Assembly (NCBI GenBank): GCA_964535655.1
Contig: CAZHTP010000002.1
Span: 90,054-154,053 of the forward strand
From: an uncultured Gammaproteobacteria bacterium
GTDB lineage: Bacteria; Patescibacteriota; Microgenomatia; JALYQM01
Reading direction: 5' to 3'
DNA length: 64,000 nt
Part shown: positions 19,957 through 64,000 of the stretch, piece after piece
How positions within the stretch are numbered: the stretch's first letter is position 1
How the letters are laid out: every line of letters starts with the position of its first letter
Notes under the pieces: generated by a model
The model's database searches: none
What the model was told of the DNA's origin: nothing
The model's input: the letters and a program-made list of their open reading frames with translations, nothing else
Made by a program: the position numbers and the translations under genes

Positions 19957-21528
19957 TCATGTCCCTGGTGCGCATCCACCCTTACCTGGGCCGAAACTTC
20001 CCGGATTATTATTCTGAACGAGTACTGGAATCTGTAATACACCAGTATCTGTTCCACCGCCTTTATCTACTGAACTTGTAACCATGGCCAGACAGTGCCA
20101 GCCATTCGTATATTGCGTAGTGTCCCAGGTAACACTTCCGCCAAAGGGTCCTGTTCCTTGTTTAAGTACCTTGCCAAAATTATCTGCTGCAAAAAGTGCA
20201 TCTACATTGACGCTATGCGTACCAGTGGCGATACCTCCGGAGCCAGGCTTCATGTTAGTGTTAAAGGTGTAACTTCCTGAAACTGGACCATATGGAATCT
20301 GGCTAAGGAATTGCGCATTTTCATAATTTGTACCAGTAAACCATCCACGAGCTTCAAGGAATGGAGGCGTTCGATACGTTTTTCCATGCCCATGAAACCA
20401 AGCCTGCCATCCAGTTGATGCATTAAGTCGTTGGCCATTCGAAAAATCACTAAAGAAACGAATACGGATTTCCTCATAGCCACTTAAGCTACTGGTTGGC
20501 ACATCGATAGGAACCCACCAGGTACAGGCGGCTTTCAAATCTGTCCCGTCTGAAGTACATTGAAGCGGTGGATTAAAGGATTTCTGAACTAGCGAAGTTC
20601 CACTTGGTCCTTTACCAATATCCAATTTAGAAATTTTTGAATTATTCCCTTTATGAATCATTAGACGCAAATCAAGATGCAATGTTGAACCGTTAAAGTC
20701 CTGATCCTGAGGAAAACAAGTTGCCGTATGTGTATGTCCACCAATTCCTTTTACTGATGTTTGTGTGGGAGTTTTGATTGAAGCAGTATCCATCCACCAT
20801 GCTTGAGTCTCAAGGAAAATACGTTTTTCAGGATAACGTGAGCAGTCGGTAGTATTCCCTCCACCAGAATCAGGGGGTGTAGGAACTGGGGTGCTCGTTG
20901 GCGTCGGAGTATTAGTTGAGTCAGGATTTGGCACAAAAATCACCACGTACATTGAATAGGCATTTCCTGGAATATCGCCAGCTTTTTCCATTTGATACGT
21001 CCCAGCACTTACTTGACGCTTATAAATATCATAAACTCCAATAAGCCCTTGGTCATTTTTGCGCAACAAGTACTGATTTAAATTAGAAAGATCATCGTTA
21101 GTTTGACGAGTATATTGAGTGGTAACCCATCCCGGAGCAAGCGATTGAAAAATATGTCGTGTTGCAATATACAGTGTTCCTGGTTGAGTGAGTGTTACGC
21201 TCCAACGTAAATTAGCATCATCTTTTATTTCAGTATTAGGAGTTTCAATTACGGTTCCTCCCGCCATTGCTGGATCAATACGAAAATATGTATAGCGCGG
21301 ATCACCAGAATACATCGTAGTATTGGTTTGTAAACATTTCTTGTTAAAGGTGAAACTGCCGTAACTCGTTATATTCGAAACATCACCGGGACATGCAGCT
21401 GCTTGAGTGGAATCAGACTTCCTTAAAGATTTAAATCCTGAAGATATAAATACAGCTACACCTATCATAAAGAGTGCAGGAATAATAAGGGACACAGAGT
21501 TAAATATTTTCATTCGACGATTCTTCAT
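19957..21528 (-). CDS. Secreted/membrane-anchored protein with a conserved N-terminal domain, Pro/Thr linker and large Gly/Thr-rich C-terminal domain. Paralog of 43666..44610
   Basis: N-terminal TM/signal segment, PTPTSTPVPTPP linker. The N-terminal ~200 aa align with the 43666..44610 product (e.g. QGLIGVYDIYKRQVSAGTYQM vs QGLIGLYDIYMKNIPAGTVQL). Confidence 0.6.
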   Translation of the reverse strand: MKNRRMKIFNSVSLIIPALFMIGVAVFISSGFKSLRKSDSTQAAACPGDVSNITSYGSFTFNKKCLQTNTTMYSGDPRYTYFRIDPAMAGGTVIETPNTEIKDDANLRWSVTLTQPGTLYIATRHIFQSLAPGWVTTQYTRQTNDDLSNLNQYLLRKNDQGLIGVYDIYKRQVSAGTYQMEKAGDIPGNAYSMYVVIFVPNPDSTNTPTPTSTPVPTPPDSGGGNTTDCSRYPEKRIFLETQAWWMDTASIKTPTQTSVKGIGGHTHTATCFPQDQDFNGSTLHLDLRLMIHKGNNSKISKLDIGKGPSGTSLVQKSFNPPLQCTSDGTDLKAACTWWVPIDVPTSSLSGYEEIRIRFFSDFSNGQRLNASTGWQAWFHGHGKTYRTPPFLEARGWFTGTNYENAQFLSQIPYGPVSGSYTFNTNMKPGSGGIATGTHSVNVDALFAADNFGKVLKQGTGPFGGSVTWDTTQYTNGWHCLAMVTSSVDKGGGTDTGVLQIPVLVQNNNPGSFGPGKGGCAPGT

Positions 21529-21605
21529 AATATATCTATAGTAAATGAGATAACTCACGTTATACAACAGTTAAAATTAATAGCAAAAAGTGATATAAAT
21601 AAAAT

Positions 21606-23180
21606 ATGTCAGAAAATGGAGAATATACAAAAATATCTGATCATATGATCGGAGTGAATGAAGTTGTTGAAAAAGATGCTGTTGATGATTGGAAAAGACA
21701 GCTCCACGGATTATCGTCTACTGCTCTAGTTGAAGAGTTTAATAGTGCCTTTATGTGGACCGATGCCGGGAGAACATTAGATTCCGGAGGTGTTGATCAC
21801 CTGGACTTAACAGAAAACGAACAGCACCGGGTGTTCCTTGCTCTTGAACTTATCAAAGCCGAGATGACAAAACGCGTTGATGCCGAACTTTCCGCAAAAA
21901 ATAAAACAAGGGCGCAGTTACTTAATGATTATTGGGGGCAAGGTAAAATAGATAATGAAGAACGCAGTGCAATACTTAATTATGGTCAAGCTGAGAATGC
22001 TCCGCGCGAACTATTAAACTACATTATCGTTTCTGAATTAGGGCGTGAAGAAGAACAAGCGAACCAAAAGAGTAAGGAAACCACTTATCATGCAAAGTTA
22101 ATAAAAAGCGTAACCAGAATGGCTGCCTCGGTTGTAGGTGGATTAAGCGTAATCGCTGCACTTGGAATGGCAACTACTCCACCAGTTGATCCCAGGATGG
22201 CAAGACAATCTGTAGATACACCAGAAAAATCACCATCGCCAGCTCCAACCGTGATACCAACGGAAGTGTTTACGATTACTTCAACACCCACTCGAACACC
22301 CGAACCAACAAGCGCTCCAAGCCCGACAGGAACCCCAGAACCTACACCTCATGCAATCACAGCAGAACAATATCTTATACAAACTGCCACCGCACTTCCC
22401 CCATCCGAAAGGAATACTTTAGTGCACAGTGAAGTATTTAGCAAAGAACAGATTCACGAGATCAAAAGAAGCAGTTACCAAGTGTTTATCGATAACGGTG
22501 GATGTTCAACAACAGTAATTGACAGGGACCATGAAAATATCACCTTATTGCTTGCTCGACACTGCTTCGTTTTCAGCATGAATAAAGATTTTTACATTCG
22601 AGAAAATCCTACAGTACTCCTTATTAATCCTGAAACTGGCGAGCAGACAAATATTCAAGTTGATGTTGATGGAATAATCTATAAACCAGGAAGATACGCA
22701 AGAGATGTTGCCTTAATCGTAGGAAAACTCGCTAATCCCAAATTTATTGCGCCTCCGTTCCCTAAGTCCAGAATTCTCTCAGACTATGCATTTAGTCCAG
22801 GTCAAGATACGCTTGTGACTGGATACCCTGCAATTTTAAATCAAGCAGGTCCAAGTCAAATTCGTTTTCTAACGGGAGAGGGCAAGTTTACTAAAAATCA
22901 GGACGTTGCTGAGTTGGGGGCCCCGGCTAAAGAAATGCAGTCTTTTATGTTTGAGCAAACACAAGAAATTTATACACCGATGGGTCCAGGTGCTAGTGGC
23001 GGAAGTGATTATGTAGTAATAGATGGAAAAACATATATCGTAGGGGTCAATTCTTATACTAATGTCGCGCTTATCAAGTATGATGGAACAATTCTTGATC
23101 CCATTCATGCCGGAATAAGTAATATTCCAGCCGAGTATTTAAACCAAGCCGAAGCAAAAATGAAGGCATTAAAGAAGTAA
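21606..23180 (+). CDS. Membrane-anchored protein with Pro/Thr linker and a C-terminal trypsin-like (S1-type) serine protease-like domain
   Basis: Internal TM helix at about residues 165-185 and a TPTRTPEPTSAPSPTGTPEPTP linker. Candidate catalytic triad contexts are LLARHCF (His), RDVALI (Asp) and GPGASGGSD (Ser, GDSGG-like). Confidence 0.45.
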   Translation: MSENGEYTKISDHMIGVNEVVEKDAVDDWKRQLHGLSSTALVEEFNSAFMWTDAGRTLDSGGVDHLDLTENEQHRVFLALELIKAEMTKRVDAELSAKNKTRAQLLNDYWGQGKIDNEERSAILNYGQAENAPRELLNYIIVSELGREEEQANQKSKETTYHAKLIKSVTRMAASVVGGLSVIAALGMATTPPVDPRMARQSVDTPEKSPSPAPTVIPTEVFTITSTPTRTPEPTSAPSPTGTPEPTPHAITAEQYLIQTATALPPSERNTLVHSEVFSKEQIHEIKRSSYQVFIDNGGCSTTVIDRDHENITLLLARHCFVFSMNKDFYIRENPTVLLINPETGEQTNIQVDVDGIIYKPGRYARDVALIVGKLANPKFIAPPFPKSRILSDYAFSPGQDTLVTGYPAILNQAGPSQIRFLTGEGKFTKNQDVAELGAPAKEMQSFMFEQTQEIYTPMGPGASGGSDYVVIDGKTYIVGVNSYTNVALIKYDGTILDPIHAGISNIPAEYLNQAEAKMKALKK

Positions 23181-23183
23181 ATT

Positions 23184-23744
23184 TTAATAATTTCCAACAT
23201 TATCAGGAATTCTTAATCCTAGATCATACTCTGTTTCATGGCATGCCACAGGAATTCCGTGGCAATAATTGCGTGAGGTGTCAATACCTTGTACAGCGCT
23301 TCTAAAACCTATGCAAGTGCAAGTGTGGCCTTTAGTACTCATAAATCCACTATCTCCAGACGGCTTTGGAAAAATAAATGCTATGAAGAGCAAGAGAAAA
23401 ATTATTTTATAAAGCCTTTTGCTAAGTTTACCTAATATGATAAACATGAGCGTATTAAATACTATGAATTCGAGCAAAACGTAATTAAGTAATTCTCCAC
23501 CGATAAAAATAGTTAGGGTATAAACAACTATACCCGGTATAAGCGTAGCGAGCCCCTTCTCCAGATATGAATTTTTGATTTTAGGTGTTACAGCACTGAT
23601 GCCGTAAAAAATTACTGATAAAATAAAGATACTTGGCACAATAGCCGGCTCAAGAAGGTTCATAAAAAAAGCATAAAATAGCTTTGAATTATTTTCAAGT
23701 ACAATTGTCAGGTGAAAAACTGAAGTGTATAAAAGTAGGCTCAA
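23184..23744 (-). CDS. Polytopic membrane protein, hypothetical
   Basis: 186 aa with 4-5 hydrophobic helices. Confidence 0.45.
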   Translation of the reverse strand: MSLLLYTSVFHLTIVLENNSKLFYAFFMNLLEPAIVPSIFILSVIFYGISAVTPKIKNSYLEKGLATLIPGIVVYTLTIFIGGELLNYVLLEFIVFNTLMFIILGKLSKRLYKIIFLLLFIAFIFPKPSGDSGFMSTKGHTCTCIGFRSAVQGIDTSRNYCHGIPVACHETEYDLGLRIPDNVGNY

Positions 23745-24144: not shown

Positions 24145-24696
24145 ATGAAAAGTAAGAAGAAACTATTTCTCGTTTTCGTGTGTGCAACATTGTTCAGCTA
24201 TGCTATTCGTGTGGGTGCAGATATCATCCGACCGTCGTTTAATCTTGCGTCGGACTATTGCTTGTTTGTTGACGTGGTACGCACTGAGTATAACGAAGAG
24301 ATTGGCGAAGAATACGATGTGGAAGAATGTACTGTCTTTAAGAATGATGTCGAACGTCAGAAGTATTATTATAACCGAGCCCTTGCGAGTCAAAATGGAG
24401 GTGGATTGTTTCTTTTGACGATGTTGGGTAGCGGTCTTTTTGGACTTTTGGTTGTACGTCTTTTGTTTCCCACCCAAGAGCGAACAGCGATTATCGGAAG
24501 TCCCTTTTTTGCAGTGGTTGTGATCGGCTCTATAAGTACCGTGGGAGCCTTTATGTTGTCCTATATTCTACCTGCACCCTCAAGCCATCTGCCTTTTATC
24601 GAATACCAGCATCAACGATGGAGTGATGAAATGGAGGTTCAACTTGAACAAAGAGTAGTAACTATTAACGAAGATGGAGTTATTACACGTCAATGA
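24145..24696 (+). CDS. Hypothetical membrane protein
   Basis: Signal/TM at the N-terminus and two further TM helices. 183 aa. Confidence 0.45.
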   Translation: MKSKKKLFLVFVCATLFSYAIRVGADIIRPSFNLASDYCLFVDVVRTEYNEEIGEEYDVEECTVFKNDVERQKYYYNRALASQNGGGLFLLTMLGSGLFGLLVVRLLFPTQERTAIIGSPFFAVVVIGSISTVGAFMLSYILPAPSSHLPFIEYQHQRWSDEMEVQLEQRVVTINEDGVITRQ

Positions 24697-24715
24697 AAAG
24701 GCATAATACAAACTA

Positions 24716-24952
24716 TTGAAAGGAACACTCATGACCAACTATTTGAACATGCGAACCCATCCATTTACTGCCTATACCATTCTGCTAGTGATAGGCTTAG
24801 TTATTGGAGGACTGATTGGCAACATTCTGATCTTAATAGGAACGTTTGGGCTAATAGGTGCCGTGTGGCGAAAGATGCTTCCAAAAAGAAAGCCAGATAT
24901 AATACCGATCCAAAAGACTACTAATAGTCCTAACCCGTCAGATGAAAAGTAG
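24716..24952 (+). CDS. Small hypothetical membrane protein
   Basis: 78 aa, two hydrophobic helices. Confidence 0.3.
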   Translation: MKGTLMTNYLNMRTHPFTAYTILLVIGLVIGGLIGNILILIGTFGLIGAVWRKMLPKRKPDIIPIQKTTNSPNPSDEK

Positions 24953-25166
24953 TCACAAAAAGATACTCCTAATCGTAACCATCCTTACAGTATTGTGCTT
25001 GGTGTACTCCATTCGGGCTGTATACGTAAGTAATATGTGTAAGGAAGAGATATACAAAATGCCTACTGAACAAAGCGAGTATGATGATTTTATAGTTGGT
25101 GCAGACTTTATGCTCACAACATGCTTGAAAGAGCAGTATGTCGTACCGCTTGAGATGTTCAAGTAG
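24942..25166 (+). CDS. Small hypothetical protein with N-terminal TM
   Basis: 74 aa ORF overlapping the previous gene by 11 nt. Confidence 0.25.
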   Translation: MKSSHKKILLIVTILTVLCLVYSIRAVYVSNMCKEEIYKMPTEQSEYDDFIVGADFMLTTCLKEQYVVPLEMFK

Positions 25167-25723
25167 TGGTAACGGAGAGATTATTGGTACAAAATATTGT
25201 GTAACTTTGTCGTCTAGCTGCATGAATGTAGTAGTATATGGGGTGAGCGAGTCGTAAAAATGAATACATTATATATCCAATATAAATAACCTATAGTATT
25301 TTTATTAAAGATGTGCTATACTGCCTTTTGCTCATAGAGTCACTAGGCTCACTTTCTAGCGTAACTGACTTTGTTGAGCGTAAGCTTTTAGAATGAGCTT
25401 AAGTACCTTAACAATAATTTAGTGGGGAAGATTGGGGTTTTGAGCTTGCATAGCCAAATAGACGCTTAAACATCGTCTTAAAGGCAAAGCATATAAGTTC
25501 AAAGCTCCAACAATTCCCTACTATCTAATGTAAGCAATAGAGAGAATAACTTCCACACTAGTTGGGACATTTGAGGTAAAAACTGCCTGTTTCTATCTGA
25601 AATGTCCCGAATAGTGAAAGGAGTGCCATGTAAGATGGTTTTGGAAAGGTAGCATAAATGCTACTCAAGTGACGCAAGTTGCTTGAACGTAATTCTTTAA
25701 CCACCTACTAAGGAGAACTAACC

Positions 25724-26155
25724 ATGCGTAAGTACGCCATCCTGTTCGCTCTGCTGGCCGCCCTGCTCGGGTTCATCAACACCGCCAACGCCGCCCCGGC
25801 TGAGTGCCGCCGCTGGACCTACACGCAGGACGCCGTGGACAACAAGCCCATCGCCACCGGCATCGAGCTGTTCAACCAGCAGTCGATCAGCATGACCTCG
25901 CCTGAGACGGGAGCCGTCCTTCGGTTCCGCAGCCTCAAGCCCTTCAGCGTGAATGGCGGCGAGGCCACCTGGACAGAGATCGCCCCCGGCGTCTTCACCT
26001 GGCAGTACGTCTACTACTTCCCCAAGGGGCACACCTACCGCATGAAGATCACGAACGTCGACGCCCGCGTCATCCCAACCATCCTGCCGGACGGCCCTGG
26101 CCGCGGCATCACCTGGACCAAGTGGTCGGCCCAATGCGGGGACTATCAGCAGTAG
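25724..26155 (+). CDS. Secreted small protein (143 aa, signal peptide, 2 Cys) encoded by a strongly GC-rich (~65% GC, high GC3) gene
   Basis: RBS AAGGAG 8 nt upstream of the ATG. Signal peptide MRKYAILFALLAALLGFINTANA. Codon usage (ctg, gcc, ggc, cgc) is sharply different from the rest of the window. Confidence 0.7.
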   Translation: MRKYAILFALLAALLGFINTANAAPAECRRWTYTQDAVDNKPIATGIELFNQQSISMTSPETGAVLRFRSLKPFSVNGGEATWTEIAPGVFTWQYVYYFPKGHTYRMKITNVDARVIPTILPDGPGRGITWTKWSAQCGDYQQ

Positions 26156-26756
26156 CAACTGCTAAGTCTCCACACTAGCTGACCCTACCTCTCTACTGCT
26201 TACCGCAGACAACGTTTTAAGTTGTGGTCGCCAATTGGCACCATGATTTTAAGATGACGTTTGCGATAAGATAGTAGGGAGGTAGTTATACAGTCAACGA
26301 ATCTGTATCTGATGAAGGCAAAATGAAGCCGAAACTACCAACTCAACTAACGTTAGTTCACGAAAAAAAACAACGGCGAAAAAAGTTAACACACAAACAA
26401 AGCAACCAAACACCACAACCACCCACCAACCCTCTGTTATTTATTCTCAACTAGCTATGTGTTCATGCTATTAATAAAACACAATCGTTTGATCGAGTTT
26501 TCCCCAACATTAACATTCAGACCATACAAAAAAGGCTCCTTTTGTGGAGCCATCTTTTGCGTCTTGGTTGTAAGATCTGTAGTTATAATACAGCCTATTG
26601 TTGCTGTATGTCAAACATGGATGGGCGTGATTTGCATTACATGATGTCTCATAGTTATCATCACAGTATTATTATCATGGTTGATAGGAGACGTGGAATG
26701 TTTTGGTTTAGCGGAAGCACTCTGGAGGAGATCACTGCTGTACACGAATTGGTTGT

Positions 26757-28367
26757 ATGGGTCGATCCCTCAAAGATCGTGCGAGTCTATACATCGCACA
26801 CAAGTACAGTGGATTAGTGGAGTATGAGATCTTATGGTTACTACTCCGTACTCGTTTAGAGCGTGAGCCTGAGCTCTTTGAAGTGGCACTCACCTACATG
26901 ACACTACTCCAAGAGTTTAAAGTTGAGCAAGGCTATCCGGATATTTTTACCAGTGCTCCTTTAATTTATGCGTTCATGACAGGTAATGACACAAGGCAGT
27001 ACAGCAAGTCTGGTAACGAGTTTGTTGCTAGTTTTACACCAGTAGTTAAACTGCTGATAGAGAAACAGGTCTTCCAACGATCTAGTTTGTACTACACTTT
27101 CAACAAGGCAGATAAACCTAATCAAGCACGATCTTTCCGGTTAACACCGAAGTTCTACCAATGGTTTAAGAATGTCTTAAGAAGGGAGATGGAACAGGGT
27201 AAGCTATTGAGCCACATGTTTAGTAAAGTGGCCTCAAAACGCACTACACAAGGCGACGGATGGGGTCACAACATCTCCAGGGTGCATCCACACCTGCAAA
27301 CGATGTATCACAAGTTACAAGCGGCTACGTTTGTGATTGACGTAGAGAAAGTGAACGATCTACTCGACATTACAGAACTTATCCGAGACGATAGTGGAGT
27401 TTTACATTTCTCACGCATGGTCAGTATTCGCCATGGATTATCCACGATTGCACTCACAAATACACCACAGCACCACGACAAGATTCATCTCCAACGATCG
27501 GGCAGACGGCACACGAAAGGTGGCTTACAAGCACTACCAAAAGAAGTCAGACGTGCAATCTTAAAACCCAATCAAGCAGGTCATGTATTGGTTGACTATG
27601 ATCTGGACTGTTGCCAGTTATTGCTTGCAGCGAAAGAACTTCACGCACAAAAGCTTATAGCCAAGATCACTGCTATAGTTGAGCGAGGCAGAGGTATTTG
27701 GAAGGCGATGAATATTCCAGTCTCAAAGACACACTTAAAAAAGGCAGTGTATGCACTGGTGTTTATGTGTCCCAAAGGACGAATCGTTGAATCAGTTAAA
27801 AACGAGATGGGAGATGCTGCGTTTACAACAGAACATCTCGAACAGCTGATCAGCTTCTTGGAAGATTTATACCCGCTGCGAGAGAAATGGAAAGCAAACA
27901 ACCGACAGGATTCGATTATCCGACATGAAGGCGAGAAAAACGAGCTTGGCTTAAAGTTTCATCTTGAAGAGGTTGGTAAACATGCGTTTAGTGGTGATCA
28001 ATATGCTGAATCCTACTTGCCCACCTATCGCAAGAGCCCGCAGAGCCAATACTTTGCGTGGAAGATGCAGAGCCGAGAGCAGTTCATCATTACCAGTCTT
28101 ATATCAACTCATGTCGATTATTTAATAGTCTGTGATTGCCATGATGGATTCCTACTCTCCATTCCAAAAGAGGAGGTGCACACAGCTACACAAGCTTACA
28201 GAACATTTCTCAAAGACAACTATGGCATGTATCTGAAAGGTGAAGTTTGGGAGGATGGGCAAGTTATTCCTGTCGATGAGTATGTAGACAACGATGAACA
28301 ATCGTTTGTTTTGCCAGTACCGACTTTCCAGAGTGTAGTACCTGCTTTTACCGGGGGTGGGGTATAA
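26757..28367 (+). CDS. Hypothetical 536-aa protein on the integrative element, candidate replication/primase-like protein
   Basis: Long ORF of intermediate GC. VLVDYDLD resembles the hhhDhD motif I of archaeo-eukaryotic primase-type primases. No other recognisable signature. Confidence 0.4.
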   Translation: MGRSLKDRASLYIAHKYSGLVEYEILWLLLRTRLEREPELFEVALTYMTLLQEFKVEQGYPDIFTSAPLIYAFMTGNDTRQYSKSGNEFVASFTPVVKLLIEKQVFQRSSLYYTFNKADKPNQARSFRLTPKFYQWFKNVLRREMEQGKLLSHMFSKVASKRTTQGDGWGHNISRVHPHLQTMYHKLQAATFVIDVEKVNDLLDITELIRDDSGVLHFSRMVSIRHGLSTIALTNTPQHHDKIHLQRSGRRHTKGGLQALPKEVRRAILKPNQAGHVLVDYDLDCCQLLLAAKELHAQKLIAKITAIVERGRGIWKAMNIPVSKTHLKKAVYALVFMCPKGRIVESVKNEMGDAAFTTEHLEQLISFLEDLYPLREKWKANNRQDSIIRHEGEKNELGLKFHLEEVGKHAFSGDQYAESYLPTYRKSPQSQYFAWKMQSREQFIITSLISTHVDYLIVCDCHDGFLLSIPKEEVHTATQAYRTFLKDNYGMYLKGEVWEDGQVIPVDEYVDNDEQSFVLPVPTFQSVVPAFTGGGV

Positions 28368-28525
28368 CTTTTTTAGGAGCGGTACCTGTTTTGTGCGAGA
28401 GCGGGTTTGTTGTATATATAATGTCGGCCCCTTTAACCCTTTTTTCTACAGAGGGGGTGTAGGTGCAAGGTTGCCACTGGCCAAACGTCTACTCAATGCT
28501 ATACTATAGTTGAAAGTAGTGACTC

Positions 28526-28720
28526 TTGGGAGGTATGAACCTCTTATTAACCAAGAGCACAAGTAAACAACCTACTATCGCCCAACTTCGTGAACTTCTT
28601 GGGCAAGATTATGCATCACTCCCCGACAGTGATGTTGTAGCTTTGTGGGAACATGTACTCTCCCTCACAGAGGCTTTATACCAAACAGGATTACATCTAT
28701 ATTATAAGAAAGGACAGTGA
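28526..28720 (+). CDS. Small hypothetical protein (64 aa)
   Basis: ORF immediately upstream of, and overlapping, the degenerate resolvase gene. Confidence 0.25.
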   Translation: MGGMNLLLTKSTSKQPTIAQLRELLGQDYASLPDSDVVALWEHVLSLTEALYQTGLHLYYKKGQ

Positions 28721-29157
28721 ATATGAACGCTGTTATTTACACTCGTTGTGCCGTTGAAGATAGTTTAGACATGCAGGAAAAAGCGTGTCGTCAATATGCT
28801 GAGTTGCAAGGCTACCAAGTAGTCAAAACTTATTCTGATAATGGTGTGTCGGGGCTTACATCTAATCGGGTAGGGTTGCAAAACTTATTACAGGAAATCG
28901 ATAAGGGATCAACAGTTATCGCTTACGATGATACTCGGTTGGCAAGATCTGTTGAGGAGATGCACCAGTTGTATAAGATTTTTGTACAGAAAGATGTTGA
29001 TGTTCATTTGGTTAAAGCAGGTTGTTTTCCGAAGAGTCCAACCGACAAATTAGCGTTTTACCTTACCGATTTAGTAAGAAGCTTTGATAACAATATTCGC
29101 TCGGAGAGAATAAAACGTGGTCTGCGAGCTAAGAAAAACAAAGGGCTTACAAACTAG
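28717..29157 (+). CDS. Serine-recombinase catalytic-domain-only paralog with the nucleophilic Ser replaced (YTRCAVED instead of YxRVSTDEQ), probably inactive
   Basis: 146 aa aligning along a resolvase catalytic domain (DDTRLARSVEE ~ DRLGRS; C-terminal E-helix IRSERIKRGLRAKKNKG). There is no DNA-binding domain, and Ser is replaced by Ala at the active-site position. Confidence 0.6.
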   Translation: MNMNAVIYTRCAVEDSLDMQEKACRQYAELQGYQVVKTYSDNGVSGLTSNRVGLQNLLQEIDKGSTVIAYDDTRLARSVEEMHQLYKIFVQKDVDVHLVKAGCFPKSPTDKLAFYLTDLVRSFDNNIRSERIKRGLRAKKNKGLTN

Positions 29158-29181
29158 CTCAAGCCGGGATATAAAATAGGC

Positions 29182-30711
29182 ATGAATGCGATCATCTATA
29201 CCAGAGTTTCAACAGATGAACAAGTTAAGGGATTTAGCTTGGGTACTCAGCTAAAGGACTGTCGGGAGTTCTGTGAGTCAAAGGGCTGGACTGTAGTTGA
29301 CGTCTTTCAAGAAGAGGGTGAAAGCGGCACTACTGACAATAGACCTGAACTGAAACGAATGCTTGCGTATCTACAGAAGCATCGAGGTTTAATCCAGTAT
29401 GTTGTAGTCTGGAAGATTGATCGCATTTCACGCCTAATGAAAGACCATTTCAAGATAACGGAGCTTATCGAGGAATGTGGTAGTGTGGTTGTGAGTAAAA
29501 CCGAGTCTTTCGATAAGACACTGTCAGGAGAGCTACAGCAGCGGATACTACAGGTGTTTAGTGAGTATGACAATAAAGTACGAGCTGAGCGATCAGTCAC
29601 AGGTACAAGAGGCGGATTAGAGAATGGTATCTGGATGAGAGGCATTCCAACAGGTTATAAAGGTAGAGATGCTCACAAAGTGCCTTTAGTTGATCCTATC
29701 ATGGGACCAATACTTGCGGATATTCTGGTTACTTTTTCTCGGGGTAATCATGAAGTAAAGCAGATAACGGAGCTTGCGAAACAAAGAGGATTGCTGACTC
29801 CTAAAGACGAAGAGGTTTCCGATAAGACCATGCATAAAATACTTCGTAACCCTTTTTACTATGGTTGGCTGTCGATGCAAGGTAAAAAGATACAGTATGG
29901 CGGGTATGGCAAACACCAGCCTTTAATAGACAAAGACACGTTCTTTAAGATTCAGTCGGCTATGCTCAGTCATAACAACAGATCAAACACACGTCATCGT
30001 AATAGAGAGGAGTTCCCTCTTAAGAAGTTGTTGAGGTGTGGTGTTTGTGGAGGAGATTTAACAGCTGGTTCATCCCCTAACAAAAAGAAAGTACTCTACT
30101 GGTATTATCACTGCCAAAAGTCTGAGCATCTACGTATTCCAAAAGATCTCATAGAGAAGCAGTTTGAAACTATGTTGGAGCGTATTCGTCCTACCGAAGG
30201 GATATTGAACCTATTTCGTTTGGCCATTAGAAACTTGGTCAATGAGCGAATGGGTGATGCGATAACTAATGTTCAACGAGTTGATAAGGAGCTGACAGCA
30301 CTCCGTGATGAAAAAAACGGATACGTGAGGATGAGAGCGAGAAACGAGCTTGATGAAGCATTGTTCTTTCAAATGCTGAGAGAGGTTGATGCTAAGATCA
30401 ACAAAAAAGAGATGATTCGTGCTGAGATGCGAGAGGAAGAAGTTGATATTGATAAGCTATTAGCTCTCTATGAAAGCCTTTTCAAAAATGTGGCGATGTG
30501 GTGGAGAGAAGCACCGCTAGAGTATAAGCAACAGATGCAACATCTGGTATACCCAAAAGGCATAACAGTTATGTCGAAGCTTGGAGAAATACAACACCCT
30601 GAATTAGGCTTAGCGTTCGCAATAGTTGATTCTTTGCGAAGTGGTAGTGCCTTGAGTAGCCCCGAGGGGAATCGAACCCCTGATCTCCAGGATGAGAACC
30701 TGGCGTCCTAG
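29182..30711 (+). CDS. Large serine recombinase (integrase)
   Basis: N-terminal resolvase domain (IYTRVSTDEQ), recombinase domain and Cys-rich zinc ribbon (CGVCGGDLTAG...YWYYHCQKS). The last ~18 codons (..PEGNRTPDLQDENLAS*) are encoded by the antisense of tRNA-Glu. Confidence 0.85.
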   Translation: MNAIIYTRVSTDEQVKGFSLGTQLKDCREFCESKGWTVVDVFQEEGESGTTDNRPELKRMLAYLQKHRGLIQYVVVWKIDRISRLMKDHFKITELIEECGSVVVSKTESFDKTLSGELQQRILQVFSEYDNKVRAERSVTGTRGGLENGIWMRGIPTGYKGRDAHKVPLVDPIMGPILADILVTFSRGNHEVKQITELAKQRGLLTPKDEEVSDKTMHKILRNPFYYGWLSMQGKKIQYGGYGKHQPLIDKDTFFKIQSAMLSHNNRSNTRHRNREEFPLKKLLRCGVCGGDLTAGSSPNKKKVLYWYYHCQKSEHLRIPKDLIEKQFETMLERIRPTEGILNLFRLAIRNLVNERMGDAITNVQRVDKELTALRDEKNGYVRMRARNELDEALFFQMLREVDAKINKKEMIRAEMREEEVDIDKLLALYESLFKNVAMWWREAPLEYKQQMQHLVYPKGITVMSKLGEIQHPELGLAFAIVDSLRSGSALSSPEGNRTPDLQDENLAS

Positions 30712-30730
30712 GCCGCTAGACGACGGGGCC
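30657..30730 (-). tRNA. tRNA-Glu (anticodon CTC)
   Basis: Minus-strand cloverleaf GGCCCCG-TC-GTCT-AGCGGCCTAGGAC-G-CCAGG-TTCTCAT-CCTGG-AGATC-AGGGG-TTCGATT-CCCCT-CGGGGCT-A, very close to canonical bacterial tRNA-Glu. Confidence 0.8.
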
Positions 30731-30995
30731 ATATGTATCAGTTTCCGCAATTATACAAAAATCGCTCGAATATATCAATTGAATGGTATAATAAGCTCAA
30801 TATGCATGAGCAGCCATGCCAAACGCTGTGGGACGTTAACTATGCCCCACAAAAAGACCATACTTCAGTAGTAGCCTATATCGCAGGTTTTTTCGTAATA
30901 CTACTTCCGTTACTTCCATTTTTAATTGGAGCGTCCTTACACGACTTAAGTGCAGCAATAAGTATCGCCTATTTCTGTACGGTTACCGCTCTGGT

Positions 30996-33350
30996 TTAAT
31001 TTTCGTTACTTCCAACCAATTGTAATTCTTTCCAGAGTAGCTGACTTGATTCTTTACCTACAGCATTCACAGAGATTTGCTGCGTTAATTCACGCCATCG
31101 AGTGTGCTCTTCAATTGGTTTATTATCCTTACCAGTCATTTCTTCACTATAGTGAATTGTTCGGCGCCCAGTCGACTCGACAATTATATTCTGCTTTTCA
31201 AACGATTTCGTATCATTCTGGTAATGAATTACGGGCTGTGTAATATACACATATTCTTTTACAAGTTCCCACAGCACGTCATTTACGGCTTCATTTGTCT
31301 CAGAAACGGGAAGGCCAAGTGTTTGTGCTTCAAAATAAACAATTGGATAGTGTGCTGAAGGATATCCCTGAGTTAATTGAGTTATAATCTTTGCAATATC
31401 AGTATCGCTTCTTTTATTTTTTGTACTTAATTTCATTAAGTTTGTACAAATTCGTTGAGTTAGCGCAAATTGGCGTGCAGCGGCGGCAGTTACCAATGGA
31501 TGAAACGGCGATTGTGAAGGATCCATTACTGCAGGTTGATCATCTTTTTGCTTAACAGTTTTAGTGGGTGTTGTTGCTGATGCCTGGAATATCTCACTAA
31601 TTGGCACAGAAGCAGATTCTTCGTTTAGTGCTTTTTGTAAAAGCATATGCGAAAACGTGGTATCAATGGGTGATAAAAATCCAAATGGATTCATTAATAT
31701 TGAATCAGCCGCCAGCGCAAACATTGTTGTTGCCATTGTCGATTCTTCTGGCAATATAACGTGCATTTCTTCACAGAATTCACGGATAAGTGTTGCCATT
31801 CTCCAAACGACCGTACTATCAGTATCCTGGATGAATGGAATAACAAAGAGCGACTTTTTCCTTCCTAATTTTCGTAGGTGGCTATACAGATAGCGCATAT
31901 CCTCCATTGCTAATTTGGCTTGAGCGGCATAAAAAACAAGTACTTTCCCATGAAGTGATTCTTCAAGTCGTTCTATTGCTTCCTGGGTATGTTCCCATGC
32001 TACCGGTGGCTTTCGTTGAGGGGCCATTGCTGCGACAGGTGCTTGTCGGGGAGCCTGTTGTGAACGCCGATCTTCTCGTTGCGGCTGACGCGGTGTTTCA
32101 GATCGAACATTCTCTATTCGTTGTTCAGGTTGTGACCGATCTCCAACCGGCTCCGGTTGCTGATTTCGCGGCGGACGAGCTTGCTGATCTTCTTGTCGTG
32201 GCCGTTGTTCCTCCTGTCGAGTAGGTTGCTCTTGCGGAGGCCTCGGTGGCTGAGTATTTTGTCGTGGTTGCTCTTGTCTTTGTTTCTGCTCTTGTTTTGG
32301 TTGGTCAGGTCTTGTCGGCGCAGATTGGACTGGCTGTTGTGGCTCCGGTTGCTGATTTACTGTCTCTTGAACAGGCATCTCTTGTGGTTGCTGTGTTTGT
32401 TGTTTAGGTTGCTGTGGTGGTGCCGGCTGAACAGCAGATACCGGTTTTTGTTGTTTGGGTGTCGGTGGCGCGGCTTGTTGTTGAGGAGCAGGCTGGACCG
32501 GTTGCGGTTTAGGTGCTTGTTGCTTCGGAGCAGGTGGTCTCTGTGGTGGTTGTGCTGGCTGTTGTTGAGGCATTGGTTGTTTGAACACCGAGTCAAGTGA
32601 AGGCAATGAGGGCGGTTGATTTGATGCGGCGGCTGCCATTGGTTGATTAAGCGGTGGTAATCGCTGACCGCCTGCAGGTGCGGGTGCAGACATACTTGGC
32701 GTATTTAATGGTGGCAGCCCAGGTGCGCTATTAGCTCCCTCAGGAGCATCAAATTGCAAACCACTACTCTTAAGTAAGTCGTCCAAACTTGGTAGATCGA
32801 AATTATCGTTGGGGGCATTGACTTGACCTTGCTTACTAAACGGCAACGGTGGAACTTGGCTTTGTACGGCCTGAGGAAGAGGCGCTGGTGCGGGAGAATT
32901 TTGTAGTGTAGGTGGGATCGGTGTTGCCGTCGCCTGTTCGGCCGCGGGAGATACCCCGTTAGTATAACTCTCCCACGCTAAGTCGGTTATACGTTTATAA
33001 ATCAGGTCAAAAGGGGATTTACGCATCTCTCCCTTAAGCCGCTGATAGCTCGTCATTGTTACAGTATTGTTCCCCATGGAGTCAACTACACTTAATGTTA
33101 CATCAGGAACATTTGGGGATGCCCCCGAATCATGAATTATATTAGGCAATTGAAAAAAACCAGTCTCCCTGCAATATTGGAGAGTTCCCATAACTTTATT
33201 ACGATCAATTTGCCGTTCTACAATATCTGTATCAGATTCAAAAATAAGCATTCGTCCGTTGTCGTAAATCTCAACATCGCCAGCACGAGAATTTGGCGGT
33301 AAAAGGCCACCACTCATTTTTACTAGTATTGCTAGATTTGAAACTGGCAT
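30996..33350 (-). CDS. Three-part protein: N-terminal domain, ~250-aa Pro/Gln-rich low-complexity spacer, C-terminal SDH/ClpP-class (S49-like) protease-like domain with the catalytic Ser apparently substituted
   Basis: The C-terminal segment FVIPFIQDTDSTVVW...ESTMATTMFALAADSILMNPFGFLSPID parallels the SDH-family ...HYAMSGGTLIALAADEIVMD...GPVDP, with Ala replacing Ser. The start is placed at an internal Met because the longest ORF overlaps tRNA-Lys(TTT). Confidence 0.45.
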   Translation of the reverse strand: MPVSNLAILVKMSGGLLPPNSRAGDVEIYDNGRMLIFESDTDIVERQIDRNKVMGTLQYCRETGFFQLPNIIHDSGASPNVPDVTLSVVDSMGNNTVTMTSYQRLKGEMRKSPFDLIYKRITDLAWESYTNGVSPAAEQATATPIPPTLQNSPAPAPLPQAVQSQVPPLPFSKQGQVNAPNDNFDLPSLDDLLKSSGLQFDAPEGANSAPGLPPLNTPSMSAPAPAGGQRLPPLNQPMAAAASNQPPSLPSLDSVFKQPMPQQQPAQPPQRPPAPKQQAPKPQPVQPAPQQQAAPPTPKQQKPVSAVQPAPPQQPKQQTQQPQEMPVQETVNQQPEPQQPVQSAPTRPDQPKQEQKQRQEQPRQNTQPPRPPQEQPTRQEEQRPRQEDQQARPPRNQQPEPVGDRSQPEQRIENVRSETPRQPQREDRRSQQAPRQAPVAAMAPQRKPPVAWEHTQEAIERLEESLHGKVLVFYAAQAKLAMEDMRYLYSHLRKLGRKKSLFVIPFIQDTDSTVVWRMATLIREFCEEMHVILPEESTMATTMFALAADSILMNPFGFLSPIDTTFSHMLLQKALNEESASVPISEIFQASATTPTKTVKQKDDQPAVMDPSQSPFHPLVTAAAARQFALTQRICTNLMKLSTKNKRSDTDIAKIITQLTQGYPSAHYPIVYFEAQTLGLPVSETNEAVNDVLWELVKEYVYITQPVIHYQNDTKSFEKQNIIVESTGRRTIHYSEEMTGKDNKPIEEHTRWRELTQQISVNAVGKESSQLLWKELQLVGSNEN
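31900..32640 (-). repeat. Low-complexity coding repeat (Pro/Gln/Glu/Arg-rich, ctg/ttg/ggt-rich DNA) inside 30996..33350
   Basis: Reiterated QQPxPQ / PKQQ peptide units. Generates long spurious antisense ORFs. Confidence 0.7.
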
Positions 33351-33476
33351 ATAAAAAGAGTGTATCCAAGATCGACATCTCTTGTCAATTGACCGCTGCC
33401 AGTGATACAGTATCCTAATCCAAGCGTAGACGGGTGTATATATCTCTGATATAATCATCACCGAGGAAATAGCAAT

Positions 33477-33548
33477 GGGTCGGTAGCTCAATGGTAGAGC
33501 AGCAGCCTTTTAAGCTGTTGGTTCTGGGTTCGAATCCCAGCCGACCCA
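33477..33548 (+). tRNA. tRNA-Lys (anticodon TTT)
   Basis: GGGTCGG-TA-GCTC-AATGGTA-GAGC-A-GCAGC-CTTTTAA-GCTGT-TGGTT-CTGGG-TTCGAAT-CCCAG-CCGACCC-A. Confidence 0.85.
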
Positions 33549-54882: not shown

Positions 54883-54953
54883 GGGCTGGTAGCTCAGCGG
54901 TAGAGCAGTTGCCTCTTAAGCAATTGGTCCTGGGTTCGAATCCCAGTCAGCCC
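54883..54953 (+). tRNA. tRNA-Lys (anticodon CTT). The 3' 38 nt are also the antisense of the 3' end of recombinase A
   Basis: GGGCTGG-TA-GCTC-AGCGGTA-GAGC-A-GTTGC-CTCTTAA-GCAAT-TGGTC-CTGGG-TTCGAAT-CCCAG-TCAGCCC-A. Confidence 0.8.
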
Positions 54954-56715
54954 ACAAGTTATCATTTCTGACTTCGAACTTTCCTTCGCTGGCAAGCCGT
55001 TGCATTATGTCTTGCGGTAAGCGTAAATCTATTCTTACTTGGTACGGTATTACTTGGTCTTCCTTCTTTCGACCCGCTATAACGTCTTTTTTTGTCGCTT
55101 TTCGAGTGTAAACATGGATTCTATCAACGATAAGATGTATTAAAGTTGACACTTCTTGCCTGTCTGTCATTAGCCCGTCTAAAAATGGTTTATATTGCTT
55201 TGCGAATAACTTAAAGGTTCGAGCATAAACGTTTGAAATTTCACCTTCACCGATTTGAAATTGTATTGTTGCTAAGTCTTTCTTTAATTCGACTTCTTTT
55301 CTATTTATGTTGTCCATTTTTTCGTCATATTCTGCGTCGCTAATATCGCCTCGCTCATACATACGTTTTACGTTTTGACGTCGTCGTGGCAATTCGTTTA
55401 GAACTTTTGTTATATCTGATTGTTTTTTCTCTAGCAGTCTTTTTCTGGCCTTTGTCGATTGAAGTGAATTAACATGGTTGTAGACGCTTTGGGGGTCATT
55501 TAGTAAGTCTTTTACAAAGTTCGATACAAATTGTTCTATCTCGTCGGCTGGGAAGGGAATAGCCCTACAAACAGTCGAATACTTTTTTGTATTCTTTGCA
55601 CCACATTGGTAGTAGTAAGCCCGTTTACCGTTCTTCTTAATAACCTTACTTGTTCCCGTCCAGTTAAGCGGGTCACGGTCAGAATAAGGGTCGTAGCAAG
55701 CATGACATTTTAGAAGACCAGACAATAAATAAAGGTGATTATCAGCCGTTTTCTGGCTATTTCGTAAGGCGATATCTTCTTTAATGCGTTGTTGCGCCAA
55801 TTCAAATATACCGAAGTCGATAATTGCGTCATGCTGGTATGGCGATTTTTCCCATAAAGACCTGTCAAGACGCTTACTTCCCTGGTTCTTGTTGTAATAA
55901 TAAATACCTAAATACACTTCGTCTTTAATAATTGCTCTAACAGTCGAATCGCGCCAAAAATGTGGGTCATTTATCTTCGTGCGGCCTGCCCGTCTTTTGC
56001 CATATTTAATCGCGGAAGGCGAAGGTGTGAGAACTTTTTTATCTATTAGGTAGTCAGCAATTTGCTGGGTATTTCTTTTTTCGACTACAAAAAGTTCAAA
56101 AATGTTGCGCACAATTTCAGTTTCAGGTTGTAAAATTTGAAGCCGCTTATCTTTATCCTTTTTATAGCCATAAGGCGCGTTTGCACCCATATAGACGCCA
56201 CGTTCTATCGCTTGCTTTTTGCCACCCTGCGTTCTATCTTTTGTTGTTTCCCTTTCGAGTTCAGCTACTACCCCGATAATACCTAGCATTGCTTTACCGA
56301 AGGGCGTAGAGGTATCTATACTTTCATTCGCAGAAATGAATTTTATGTCGTGAGCCTCGAAGTATTCAGTTACTTCCAGTAGGATTTTTAGCTTACGGGC
56401 GAATCTATCAATACGATAAACAAGAACAATATCAAAAGGTTTTACGCCACCTGGCGCGTTTTCTATATCTTCTTTCATTCGTATAAACGCGGGTCTTTGC
56501 TCTAAGGGCGTTGTGCCACTAACACCTTCTTCTTTGTATAAATACTGTTTGCCAGCTAAAACCATAGCGGGTTTACCGTTATCAAGATTGCCTTTAGACG
56601 CAATAATCCCTTCTATTGAAGCCTTTTGCAAAGGAATGCCGTATTTTTCCATTTGTTCGTCCGTAGATACTCGAAGATATCCCGCGGCACGAAGTGTTAC
56701 TTGTTGTTTATTCAT
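54916..56715 (-). CDS. Large serine recombinase A
   Basis: YLRVSTDEQ catalytic motif, recombinase domain, and Cys-containing zinc-ribbon region (CHACYDP...YYYQCGAKN). The C-terminus ..WADWDSNPGPIA* is translated from the antisense of the tRNA-Lys T-arm and acceptor. Confidence 0.85.
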   Translation of the reverse strand: MNKQQVTLRAAGYLRVSTDEQMEKYGIPLQKASIEGIIASKGNLDNGKPAMVLAGKQYLYKEEGVSGTTPLEQRPAFIRMKEDIENAPGGVKPFDIVLVYRIDRFARKLKILLEVTEYFEAHDIKFISANESIDTSTPFGKAMLGIIGVVAELERETTKDRTQGGKKQAIERGVYMGANAPYGYKKDKDKRLQILQPETEIVRNIFELFVVEKRNTQQIADYLIDKKVLTPSPSAIKYGKRRAGRTKINDPHFWRDSTVRAIIKDEVYLGIYYYNKNQGSKRLDRSLWEKSPYQHDAIIDFGIFELAQQRIKEDIALRNSQKTADNHLYLLSGLLKCHACYDPYSDRDPLNWTGTSKVIKKNGKRAYYYQCGAKNTKKYSTVCRAIPFPADEIEQFVSNFVKDLLNDPQSVYNHVNSLQSTKARKRLLEKKQSDITKVLNELPRRRQNVKRMYERGDISDAEYDEKMDNINRKEVELKKDLATIQFQIGEGEISNVYARTFKLFAKQYKPFLDGLMTDRQEVSTLIHLIVDRIHVYTRKATKKDVIAGRKKEDQVIPYQVRIDLRLPQDIMQRLASEGKFEVRNDNLWADWDSNPGPIA

Positions 56716-57103
56716 GGTCGTTATTAGTTCCTGGTATGTTATCTTTAACTACCTGCTCGTCTTTTGCGCGAAATCCATGTGTCAATTTATGAAGTAGTTG
56801 CTTATCCTCGGTTTCAGACGACCTTATAACCACTTCTAGCTTCCGTACACCTGTATTCTGCTTGAAGTCTATTGAATACTTATTCAGAACGAGAATGTCC
56901 AGCAAAACCCCACCTAGAGCCTGTAAATCGCTTTCTTTATAAGGTTCTTCCATATCCTGAAACTGGCTCGATTTGAAGTTTTTGTAAGGAATACCCCATT
57001 TATAAATGCACGCATTCCTTTCTATGAGAACAGACATTAGGTCGTCTGGTTGAAATAAGCCGTCTGCTTCTTCGGGAAGTTCGTATTTAGAGTTCTTTTT
57101 CAT
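56708..57103 (-). CDS. Hypothetical 131-aa protein co-transcribed with recombinase A (8-nt overlap)
   Basis: ORF overlaps the recombinase start. No recognisable domain. Its position fits an accessory or directionality factor. Confidence 0.4.
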   Translation of the reverse strand: MKKNSKYELPEEADGLFQPDDLMSVLIERNACIYKWGIPYKNFKSSQFQDMEEPYKESDLQALGGVLLDILVLNKYSIDFKQNTGVRKLEVVIRSSETEDKQLLHKLTHGFRAKDEQVVKDNIPGTNNDHE

Positions 57104-57152
57104 AAATGTTATTTCTAATTATAGCTTAAAGATGTATAATTTAGTATAAGTT

Positions 57153-57341
57153 ATGCCAAGTAAAACAAAACTACTGCGAATAAGGGAAGCCGCCGAACTG
57201 TTAGGCGTAAATCCCGAAACGTTACGACGCTGGGACAATGAAGGGCGTCTAAAGGCTATTCGCATAGGTAAAAGGCAAGATAGAAGATATAAGCCAGAAG
57301 ACGTTCAAAGGATTATTGAAGGTAAAACAAACAATGAGTAA
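57153..57341 (+). CDS. Excisionase/AlpA-like (HTH_17, MerR-superfamily) DNA-binding protein
   Basis: LLRIREAAELLGVNPETLRRWDNEGRLKAIRIG matches the Xis-type HTH pattern. Confidence 0.6.
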   Translation: MPSKTKLLRIREAAELLGVNPETLRRWDNEGRLKAIRIGKRQDRRYKPEDVQRIIEGKTNNE

Positions 57342-58818: not shown

Positions 58819-58820
58819 TT

Positions 58821-60328: not shown

Positions 60329-60352
60329 GTTTAGATTATATCTGATAACGCA

Positions 60353-60952: not shown

Positions 60953-60956
60953 AGGC

Positions 60957-62864: not shown

Positions 62865-62953
62865 AATAGTTCATGGTAGAGTATCTCTGTTTAGTAAAAT
62901 TATTATGATTATCCTATATAACTGTGAACTATATCAAGAGTTTGTTATGAGTT

Positions 62954-63571: not shown

Positions 63572-63697
63572 AGTACACCCTTTTTTGACTCATTTAGCAA
63601 GGTGATTATGTAGTGTACTGGACGGTTTTTGAATATTTTATTTGAAACTCCCTCTATCTGAACTTACTATATTGGGAGTTTTCCAATACTGTATTTT

Positions 63698-63922: not shown

Positions 63923-64000
63923 GCCTTATTTATAGGAAAATGGACAAATTTTCACATCATAATATCGTTAACATTAGTTATTGATAATGCTATTAAGTAA

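Follow-up and report, generated by a model that had tools for sequence, protein, structure and literature searches.

A probable 9-kb mobile element at tRNA-Glu(CTC) whose large serine recombinase gene ends within the tRNA

The 64,000-nucleotide (nt) stretch of contig CAZHTP010000002.1 analysed here (hereafter the window) very probably carries an integrated mobile element of ~9.05 kb, which occupies ~21.6–30.66 kb and was inserted at the 3' end of a tRNA-Glu(CTC) gene by its own large serine recombinase (LSR), LSR1. The mechanism, site-specific integration by an LSR, is an ordinary one. It is combined with an unusual and widespread layout, in which the recombinase gene runs into the tRNA, and with cargo for which we found no description.

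An insertion at tRNA-Glu(CTC)

To place the locus in context we compared it with related loci, which are designated here by L numbers. A cluster-mate of the window's TypA (at least 90% identity) led to L006 (GCA_964403585.1, a 1.57-Mb contig), where the gene order is typA, a gene encoding 506 amino acids (aa), 118 nt, tRNA-Glu(CTC), a 72-aa gene, an 822-aa gene and tRNA-Lys(TTT). Alignment by blastn matched L006 12004–13447 to window 20027–21458 and L006 13557–13682 to window 30639–30761. Points that adjoin in L006 thus lie 9.1 kb apart in the window, and the window therefore carries an insertion; with ~9.1 kb of window DNA missing between the same two neighbours, L006 represents an empty site. 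The initial annotation of this DNA had begun the element at 25170 (5.5 kb), which did not hold, since in comparison with L006 the inserted DNA starts at ~21.54–21.61 kb and measures ~9 kb.

A different occupant was found in L005 (metagenome-assembled genome JALYQM010000012.1), the sole other match in an exact scan for the window tRNA that covered genome contigs, with one genome per species; the same exact scan of metagenomes gave no match. The tRNA-Glu(CTC) of L005 is 100% identical to that of the window, and the DNA to its right is syntenic with the window at ~70% nucleotide identity. To its left lies a different LSR of 519 aa, which is 28% identical to LSR1 and has the same final 20 residues. 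Unbroken nucleotide identity between L005 and the window begins at window 30653, 3 nt outside the tRNA. The site therefore shows a presence/absence polymorphism, and the LSR1 locus is an insertion and not a fixed feature. The initial annotation had recommended comparison with sister genomes and had named, as the finding that would speak against a mobile element, a fixed chromosomal arrangement lacking flanking variability. The comparison gave the opposite result, an empty site in one relative and a divergent LSR at an identical tRNA in another.

By its domain order and catalytic motif, LSR1 is classed as a large serine recombinase. A Resolvase domain (PF00239, E 6.5e-32) is followed by a Recombinase domain (PF07508, E 1.3e-12) and then by a Zn_ribbon_recom domain (PF13408), the last being borderline at 25.7 bits against a cut-off of 25.3. 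The serine nucleophile, Ser10 in YTRVSTDEQ, aligns with that of other LSRs, and the open reading frame (ORF) is intact, with the catalytic motif and all three LSR domains present. LSR1 is 100% identical to protein P0001, and its next homologue stands at 31%, making it a singleton.

The LSR1 gene is convergent with tRNA-Glu(CTC) and overlaps it by 56 nt (30656–30711). Its C-terminus, ...ALSSPEGNRTPDLQDENLAS*, is read off the antisense of the acceptor, T and anticodon arms, and the last ~19 codons lie within the tRNA plus 3 nt, sequence that is common to other genomes. The window tRNA does not encode CCA. The convergent 509-aa recombinase of the initial annotation is thus upheld by ARAGORN, Rfam, Pfam and the ORF itself, as is its derivation of the final ~18 codons from 55 nt of antisense tRNA, with the small adjustment given by our counts. 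Rfam searches of the window and of its non-coding stretches returned tRNAs only. The features of the locus are collected in Table 1.

Table 1. Features of the LSR1 element and its junctions, in window coordinates
Feature	Position	Strand	Basis or remark
Left junction bracket, attL-type	21536..21610	.	L006 host homology stops at ~21535 (blastn, Smith-Waterman); proposed GT at 21608–21609
Orphan cargo: 524-aa ORF (+) and 186-aa ORF (-)	21606..23744	.	Absent in L006
XRE/Cro-type helix-turn-helix (HTH) regulator, 69 aa	23839..24048	-	Pfam HTH_3, 1.5e-15
Three small ORFs (183, 78 and 74 aa), hydrophobic by eye, divergent from the HTH gene	24145..25166	+	
Conserved non-coding block, candidate small RNA, leader or origin	25268..25414	+	Extended -10-like TGTGCTATACT at its start
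143-aa protein	25724..26155	+	tblastx 38% against L010 166-aa gene
Terminator-like GC-rich hairpin, T-runs on either strand, separating the 143-aa and polymerase-like genes	26534..26551	.	
536-aa divergent protein, predicted family-A DNA polymerase fold	26757..28367	+	AlphaFold2 and Foldseek
64-aa ORF, next gene upstream of the recombinase module; putative accessory or directionality factor	28526..28720	+	
146-aa resolvase-domain-only protein adjoining LSR1, catalytic Ser to Ala (YTRCAVED)	28717..29157	+	PF00239, 1.4e-28
Large serine recombinase LSR1, 509 aa	29182..30711	+	Pfam PF00239, PF07508, PF13408; motif YTRVSTDEQ
Right junction, attR-type, element/host boundary bracket	30639..30660	.	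L005 identity from 30653; proposed crossover dinucleotide GT at 30656–30657
tRNA-Glu(CTC), intact, target (attB-derived) gene	30656..30730	-	ARAGORN; Rfam tRNA 60.5 bits (start at 30656/30657)
Sigma-70-like promoter TTGATA-17-TATAAT, host side, immediately upstream of the tRNA	30750..30778	-	Consensus scan, 11/12 matches; a pattern match alone

Recombinase tails and crossover at the tRNA end

The overlap of recombinase and tRNA genes extends well beyond this locus. The closest homologues of LSR1 (27–31% identity) nearly all end in ...[LM]V..G[FIV]EP..., which is CCA, acceptor stem and T-arm read in antisense, and the three that were checked in their contigs (L001, L002 and L004) overlap tRNA-Glu(TTC), tRNA-Arg(ACG) and tRNA-Ala(CGC) in the same convergent orientation. 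The antisense T-arm motif occurs within the last 30 aa of 70 of the 114 full-length homologues, against an expectation of 0.022 per 30 aa. Almost all of these 70 have it in one frame; the frame in LSR1 differs from that of most of the clade. The overlap is a trait of the clade and not a product of chance, in support of the earlier proposal of a family of LSR elements adapted to tRNA attB sites.

Two relatives delimit the sequence at which exchange occurs. In L001 both element ends are visible, marked by a 12-nt direct repeat, AAATGGTACTCC, that comprises the last 9 nt of the tRNA and 3 nt of flank. The left copy of the repeat separates housekeeping genes from element genes, and after it comes a sequence that, read by eye, appears to be the old tRNA terminator; the LSR ORF extends ~32 nt past the core into the tRNA. 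In L011, where no tRNA is present, an ORF of the clade crosses a tRNA-end-like core, ATGGTACCCC (~9–10 nt), into non-tRNA DNA; the alignment of this ORF with P0003, which is 44% identical and lies at a tRNA, ends exactly at ...NMVP. Reading by eye of L001 3680–3711 and 11420–11460 further indicated that the old terminator was left at the left junction, and that a hairpin (GGAGCC-TTTA-AGGCTCC with a T-run, tRNA strand) within the LSR gene's 3' end is a possible replacement terminator for the tRNA.

Further evidence comes from the window itself, in which 54883–64000 is a tandem array at tRNA-Lys(CTT). The element of a second recombinase, LSR2 (~54956–61087, 6.1 kb), lies between the tRNA and the element of a third, LSR3, which runs from 61088 to beyond 64000 and is older than the LSR2 insertion. 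The LSR2 element (window 59575–54932) is 97.8% identical in L007, where it is joined to tRNA-Glu(TTC), and is also found at a third tRNA in L012 (anticodon GAC by eye; the tRNA is cut by the contig end). LSR2-type elements with integrases at least 90% identical therefore occupy three tRNA genes, namely tRNA-Glu(TTC) in L007 and L008, that of L012, and tRNA-Lys(CTT) at window 54883–54955. All of the LSR2 junctions share ...AACTTGTG and then diverge, giving as tails WADWDSNPGPIA*, no tail, and WAVRDSNP*. As one element is joined to three different tRNA bodies, the tRNA body is not element DNA. This distribution suggests that recognition by the LSR2 enzyme depends on the conserved discriminator and T-arm and not on one particular tRNA. 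A few nt inside each element end (54963–54972 and 61074–61083) lies one arm of a perfect inverted repeat of 10 nt, CATTTCTGAC / GTCAGAAATG, and the two ends, when joined, form a classic palindromic serine-integrase attP around ...AACTTGTGG on one side of the join and GACAG... on the other.

L009 holds a 96.7% identical LSR3 element directly next to tRNA-Lys(CTT), within the same host neighbourhood. The window's LSR3 has exchanged the tail ...WWVGRDSNPRPTA* for 45 residues read through into the LSR2 element's far end. LSR tails are thus dependent on context, and the tail swaps of LSR2 and LSR3 imply that attP lies at the end of the integrase gene, that crossover takes place at the tRNA 3' end and that the tail codons are host DNA. 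Moreover, other samples contain near-identical LSR2 and LSR3 copies at different tRNAs, so that elements of this type are mobile at present. The initial annotation had assigned the elements at tRNA-Glu and tRNA-Lys to one family on the basis of their common arrangement; the habit is indeed the same, but they are not close kin, because their LSRs are 25% identical and belong to two subclades.

In the relatives for which both junctions or two contexts are available (L001, L007, L009 and L012), crossover is located at the very tRNA end with a core of at most 12 bp, and tail length in relatives ranges from 0 to ~45 residues. Because of this range, and because the frame is not conserved in LSR1, the LSR1 tail is most likely a by-product of the location of attP and not a required part of the enzyme. 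The variable tails and the LSR1 frame likewise appear to argue against a strict regulatory need for the tail. The best-supported reading is that the tRNA-derived codons of LSR1 are host DNA beyond the junction and not element DNA. An attP within the gene, with integration altering the C-terminus, is directly observed for LSR2, LSR3 and members of the clade and is inferred for LSR1.

On the model of these resolved relatives, LSR1 would recombine an attP at the very 3' end of its gene with an attB made up of the tRNA 3' end and the flank downstream. The two sites would share a very short core, probably the GT at tRNA positions 73–74 (the core is 12 bp in L001). As crossover would occur at the tRNA end with so short a core, the tRNA would stay intact, no long direct repeat would form and the last ~19 integrase codons would be host tRNA DNA. 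Both occupied sites, in the window and in L005, read TGA immediately before the GT, whereas the empty site in L006 reads AAT, which suggests exchange at this GT (window 30656–30657). Pairing it with the GT at 21608–21609 would give an element of 9,048 bp. The attP is modelled as ...GGTAGTGCCTTGA-GT-CAGAAAATGGAG... and the attB as ...AATAAAATAT-GT-AGCCCCGAGGGG..., with predicted junction sequences GGTAGTGCCTTGAGTCAGAAAATGGAG for attP and AATAAAATATGTAGCCCCGAGGGG for the empty attB. Following excision, the LSR1 ORF is predicted to end ...ALSQKMENIQKYLII*.

Searches for a left att repeat gave results in accordance with the initial annotation, which could not find one: no direct tRNA copy of at least 10 nt is present in the 64-kb window, and none with up to 3 mismatches in 16 nt within 19–29.2 kb. 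The direct copy of at least 12 nt of the tRNA-Glu 3' end that it had nevertheless anticipated is consequently absent from the whole window. Its dismissal of a wrongly oriented 10-nt match near 25659 was correct; the match (25660–25669) is inverted and at chance level, with 31 10-mers against an estimated ~23 expected and a mean of 0.55 for shuffled queries. This 10-mer and a 13/16 inverted match at 28489 were rejected as P' half-sites, both being at background level. The terminator at 26551–26534 (minus strand) was considered as the orphaned tRNA terminator of a 4.1-kb element and discarded, because L006 puts the boundary at ~21.6 kb. At the left bracket, an ungapped comparison of window 21588–21605 (AAGTGATATAAATAAAAT) with the L006 flank (AAGTGGTAGTGACAAAAT) gave 13 matches in 18 positions; the gapped local alignment is not significant (p = 0.3–0.5). 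Two further candidates failed: a derivation of the L006 flank from an LSR 3' end (similarity past a shared 11-mer is not significant, p = 0.73), and the inverted repeats I5 and I8 of L005 as a tRNA remnant, which on reading the sequence were judged to be due to chance.

Cargo of the element

The most distinctive cargo gene encodes the 536-aa protein, which has no Pfam, PHROG, NCBIfam or PADLOC match. Its single close homologue (52%) is a 540-aa protein of L010, and an exhaustive HMMER search yielded 27 remote homologues. None of 24 family members had a Pfam match, DNA_pol_A included, and a sequence-profile search of the PDB gave no match. The AlphaFold2 model (pLDDT 84, pTM 0.82) was compared with the PDB by Foldseek, and all of the top 50 matches were family-A polymerases (E 2.5e-7 to 3e-6, probability 1.00, ~330 aligned columns), with Pol I, Taq, Bst, Pol theta and the apicoplast polymerase at the top. 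Residues that are invariant or nearly so in alignment A5, namely D282 (DLxSAQL), K324/K328/Y332 and D463 (QYDG), were tentatively matched by eye to motifs A (D..SQ.EL), B (K...Y) and C (.DE/.D.). We read the protein, on its modelled fold, as a very divergent PolA-like polymerase.

L010 (Logan SRR8893623_131986, 10,061 nt) is a further LSR element that shares with the window the order HTH gene (minus strand), plus-strand small genes, a 148-nt non-coding block, the 143/166-aa gene and the 536/540-aa gene. This common order ties at least 23.8–30.66 kb into one unit. In L010 a helicase-like gene follows the polymerase-like gene, and the 506-aa LSR enters an apparent truncated antisense tRNA at the contig end (by eye; ARAGORN calls none). 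A protein collection places the L010 polymerase-like protein and the window on one 234-kb contig, in which case the window genome would hold at least four LSR elements. The non-coding block is 87% identical to L010 3108–3254, compared with ~67% for the polymerase-like gene, and its plus strand has a two-hairpin fold with z = -3.0; no Rfam family matches it.

The HTH gene is at the same position in L010, L001 and L009. The three small ORFs have no family matches and correspond in position to the plus-strand genes after the HTH gene in L010. The 143-aa protein has a hydrophobic N-terminus and is putatively secreted, from its translation read by eye; its gene (25718–26158) also contains a full-length antisense ORF. 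Weak similarity (14–31%) links the 64-aa ORF to small ORFs upstream of the LSRs in L001, L002, L004, L005 and L010. In the 146-aa protein, RCAV aligns to the RVST of LSRs (alignment A7). The protein, which is not seen in related elements, is predicted to be catalytically dead; it may act as a regulator or have arisen as a duplicate that decayed. Apart from it and LSR1, no recombinase-like sequence lies within 19.6–29.2 kb, and a search of the insertion for LSR pseudogene remnants, as a test for tandem insertion, detected none. PADLOC, PHROGs and NCBIfam searches of the cargo matched only the HTH gene and the recombinase domains. For the 524-aa and 186-aa ORFs there was no homologue in any fetched locus and no family match; absence from L006 is what assigns them to the LSR1 element, and we are less certain of them than of the rest. 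The insertion has a uniform GC content of 42.4%, near flank values, with no internal compositional break. Taken together, the polymerase fold, XRE regulator, non-coding block, small hydrophobic proteins and inactive resolvase suggest, from sequence and predicted structure, a self-replicating element.

Alternative readings, known systems and implications

Several observations weigh against the ~9.05-kb element as described. L006 is a different species (~70–78% nucleotide identity in flanking genes), so that the 9.1-kb gap may be the total of two or more events. Nothing ties the leftmost 2.2 kb to other LSR elements. In the inserted region there is no direct repeat of at least 10 nt and no P/P' inverted repeat above background, and comparison of the L006 flank with this region and with the left junction gave no significant match. 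Neither a circular or excised form nor a contig with an attP junction of the LSR1 element was found. An 11-mer, AAGTGGTAGTG, at 30639–30649, 6–7 nt outside the tRNA 3' end, is also present in the empty flank of L006 (13557–13567) and could put the element boundary up to 17 nt further left, or the crossover at least 17 nt outside the tRNA; its adjacent bases differ between the window and L006, L005 is without it, and it may be a recognition motif shared by the B and P arms, or host flank. The polymerase call is made from fold and motifs only (TM 0.35–0.43, 10–15% identity). The exact left junction and the present mobility of the LSR1 element are unproven.

On a rival reading the element is its right part only (~25.2–30.7 kb, as in the initial annotation, or ~23.8–30.7 kb), with 21.6–23.8/25.2 kb a separate variable island or lineage-specific host genes missing from L006. 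The block common with L010 has its start at the HTH gene or at 25268, other LSR elements contain no match for the 524-aa and 186-aa genes, and the L006/window lineage is rich in other indels of this kind, such as three extra L006 genes between UPF0102 and typA (L006 5613–9941) that are absent in the window at ~17.7 kb. We nonetheless consider a smaller element unlikely, because no att-like sequence, tRNA fragment or host-flank homologue lies inside 21.6–30.6 kb and no L006 host gene maps to the inserted DNA. Elements of this kind normally include small regulators like the HTH gene, and the even GC content, close to that of the flanks, reveals no internal break.

It is far less probable that the recombinase/tRNA layout is a fixed, domesticated chromosomal feature, for instance with a recombinase that is developmentally used or decayed. 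Such a feature would fit the unrecognisable attL, the unobserved excised form, the singleton status of LSR1, with no homologue above 31% identity, and the adjoining inactive resolvase-domain gene. It is difficult to reconcile with a site that lacks the insertion in L006 and is occupied by another LSR in L005, with an LSR1 ORF that retains its catalytic motif and three domains, and with the near-identical LSR2 and LSR3 copies at different tRNAs in other samples. Equally improbable in our view is that the overlapped 3' part of the tRNA is element DNA, brought in by an attP with ~55 nt of tRNA, the displaced original end having been lost or decayed. A tRNA segment carried in attP is the usual layout of tRNA-integrating islands with tyrosine integrases, and because window and L005 have 100% identical tRNAs, this comparison alone cannot assign the ownership of the tRNA. 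However, no tRNA fragment is left in the window, even with 3 mismatches in 16 nt, the L001 repeat is only 12 nt long, the 97.8% identical LSR2 element is joined to three tRNA bodies, and L011 has only ~9–10 tRNA-end-like nt before non-tRNA DNA. Integration of the ~9.05-kb element by LSR1 at the end of a host tRNA accordingly remains our preferred reading.

With the canonical serine integrases of phiC31, Bxb1, TP901-1 and A118, LSR1 shares the three-domain architecture and, as modelled, short att sites of minimal identity, and the lack of flanking repeats would follow from such sites. The imperfect-palindrome attP of the LSR2 element, with its 10-nt inverted repeat, also resembles those of canonical phage integrases. 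To our knowledge, the known canonical serine integrases target protein-coding genes or intergenic sites. Pipolins are reportedly self-replicating integrative elements with a primer-independent PolB and a tyrosine recombinase, often located in tRNA genes. The LSR1 element is likewise small, integrated at a tRNA gene and equipped with a predicted DNA polymerase of its own; it differs from them in its family-A polymerase fold and serine recombinase.

In the Durrant et al. (2022) catalogue of LSRs (PMC10083194), targets are grouped by protein gene clusters and tRNA is never mentioned. Serine recombinases of eight Mycobacterium elements of the AICE type (conjugative and integrative elements of actinomycetes) integrate in tRNA-Leu, a type of integration called 'rare' in the retrieved passages (Ghinet et al., 2011; PMC3218068). 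These elements resemble ours in being integrative, in their PF07508 serine recombinase and in using a tRNA gene as attB; they differ in host phylum and in cargo (actinomycete conjugation and replication genes), and the passages retrieved contain no recombinase ORF that crosses the junction into the tRNA. The serine recombinase of the filamentous phage phiRSM1/3 integrates at the 3' end of tRNA-Ser via a 13-nt common sequence (Askora et al., 2011, as summarised in PMC4471427). The likeness lies in a serine recombinase at a tRNA 3' end with a short common sequence, whereas the phiRSM1/3 enzyme is of the small resolvase/invertase type, without the Recombinase and zinc-ribbon domains, and its attP lies between two genes and not at the end of the integrase ORF.

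The nearest analogue for a gene that spans attP is provided by mycobacteriophage BPs and its relatives, in which attP reportedly lies in the 3' end of a gene and integration changes the C-terminus of the protein (PMC4557955). Unlike BPs, the gene across attP here is the serine integrase itself, and the C-terminal change is known from sequence alone. In the integration-dependent immunity of BPs the gene is said to encode the repressor, the integrase to be a tyrosine recombinase and the change to act via a degradation tag. The literature searched yielded no description of a serine integrase gene spanning attP, nor one of the polymerase-like cargo of such elements.

Serine integrases rank among the major tools of genome engineering, and protein-coding genes are usually regarded as their natural targets; tRNA 3' ends are short, highly conserved and present in every genome. 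A broad clade that uses tRNA 3' ends, with at least one member at three tRNAs, widens the known target range of these enzymes, and short-core crossover at the tRNA end explains why such elements escape direct-repeat searches. The gene-across-att layout means that annotated integrase C-termini are partly host sequence, which matters for cloning. The divergent polymerase-like cargo hints at a small self-replicating element family in poorly known uncultivated bacteria. A bolder synthesis, which we hold to be possible but doubtful, is that a widespread serine-integrase clade with attP in its own last codons targets the conserved tRNA 3' end and T-arm, that integration rewrites the C-terminus and excision restores the other tail, that either cell or element could exploit this as a sensor of integration state biasing directionality or stability, and that in this lineage the elements form a new self-replicating class around a family-A-like polymerase missed by every sequence model.

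Finally, some features of the surroundings were recorded. The neighbour of the window tRNA encodes an 831-aa protein (30996–33491). A profile of this protein had no match in metagenomes, a protein search with its C-terminal domain gave no match, and an exact-sequence look-up of the full 831 aa found it absent from a large protein collection. The protein has a long Pro/Gln-rich middle that is GC-rich (53% GC at 32–33 kb) and a conserved ClpP/SDH-like C-terminal domain. In L005, positions 1–2500 form ~2.5 kb upstream of the recombinase module with no ORF longer than 82 aa and a GC content of 31–38%. One relative derives from groundwater.

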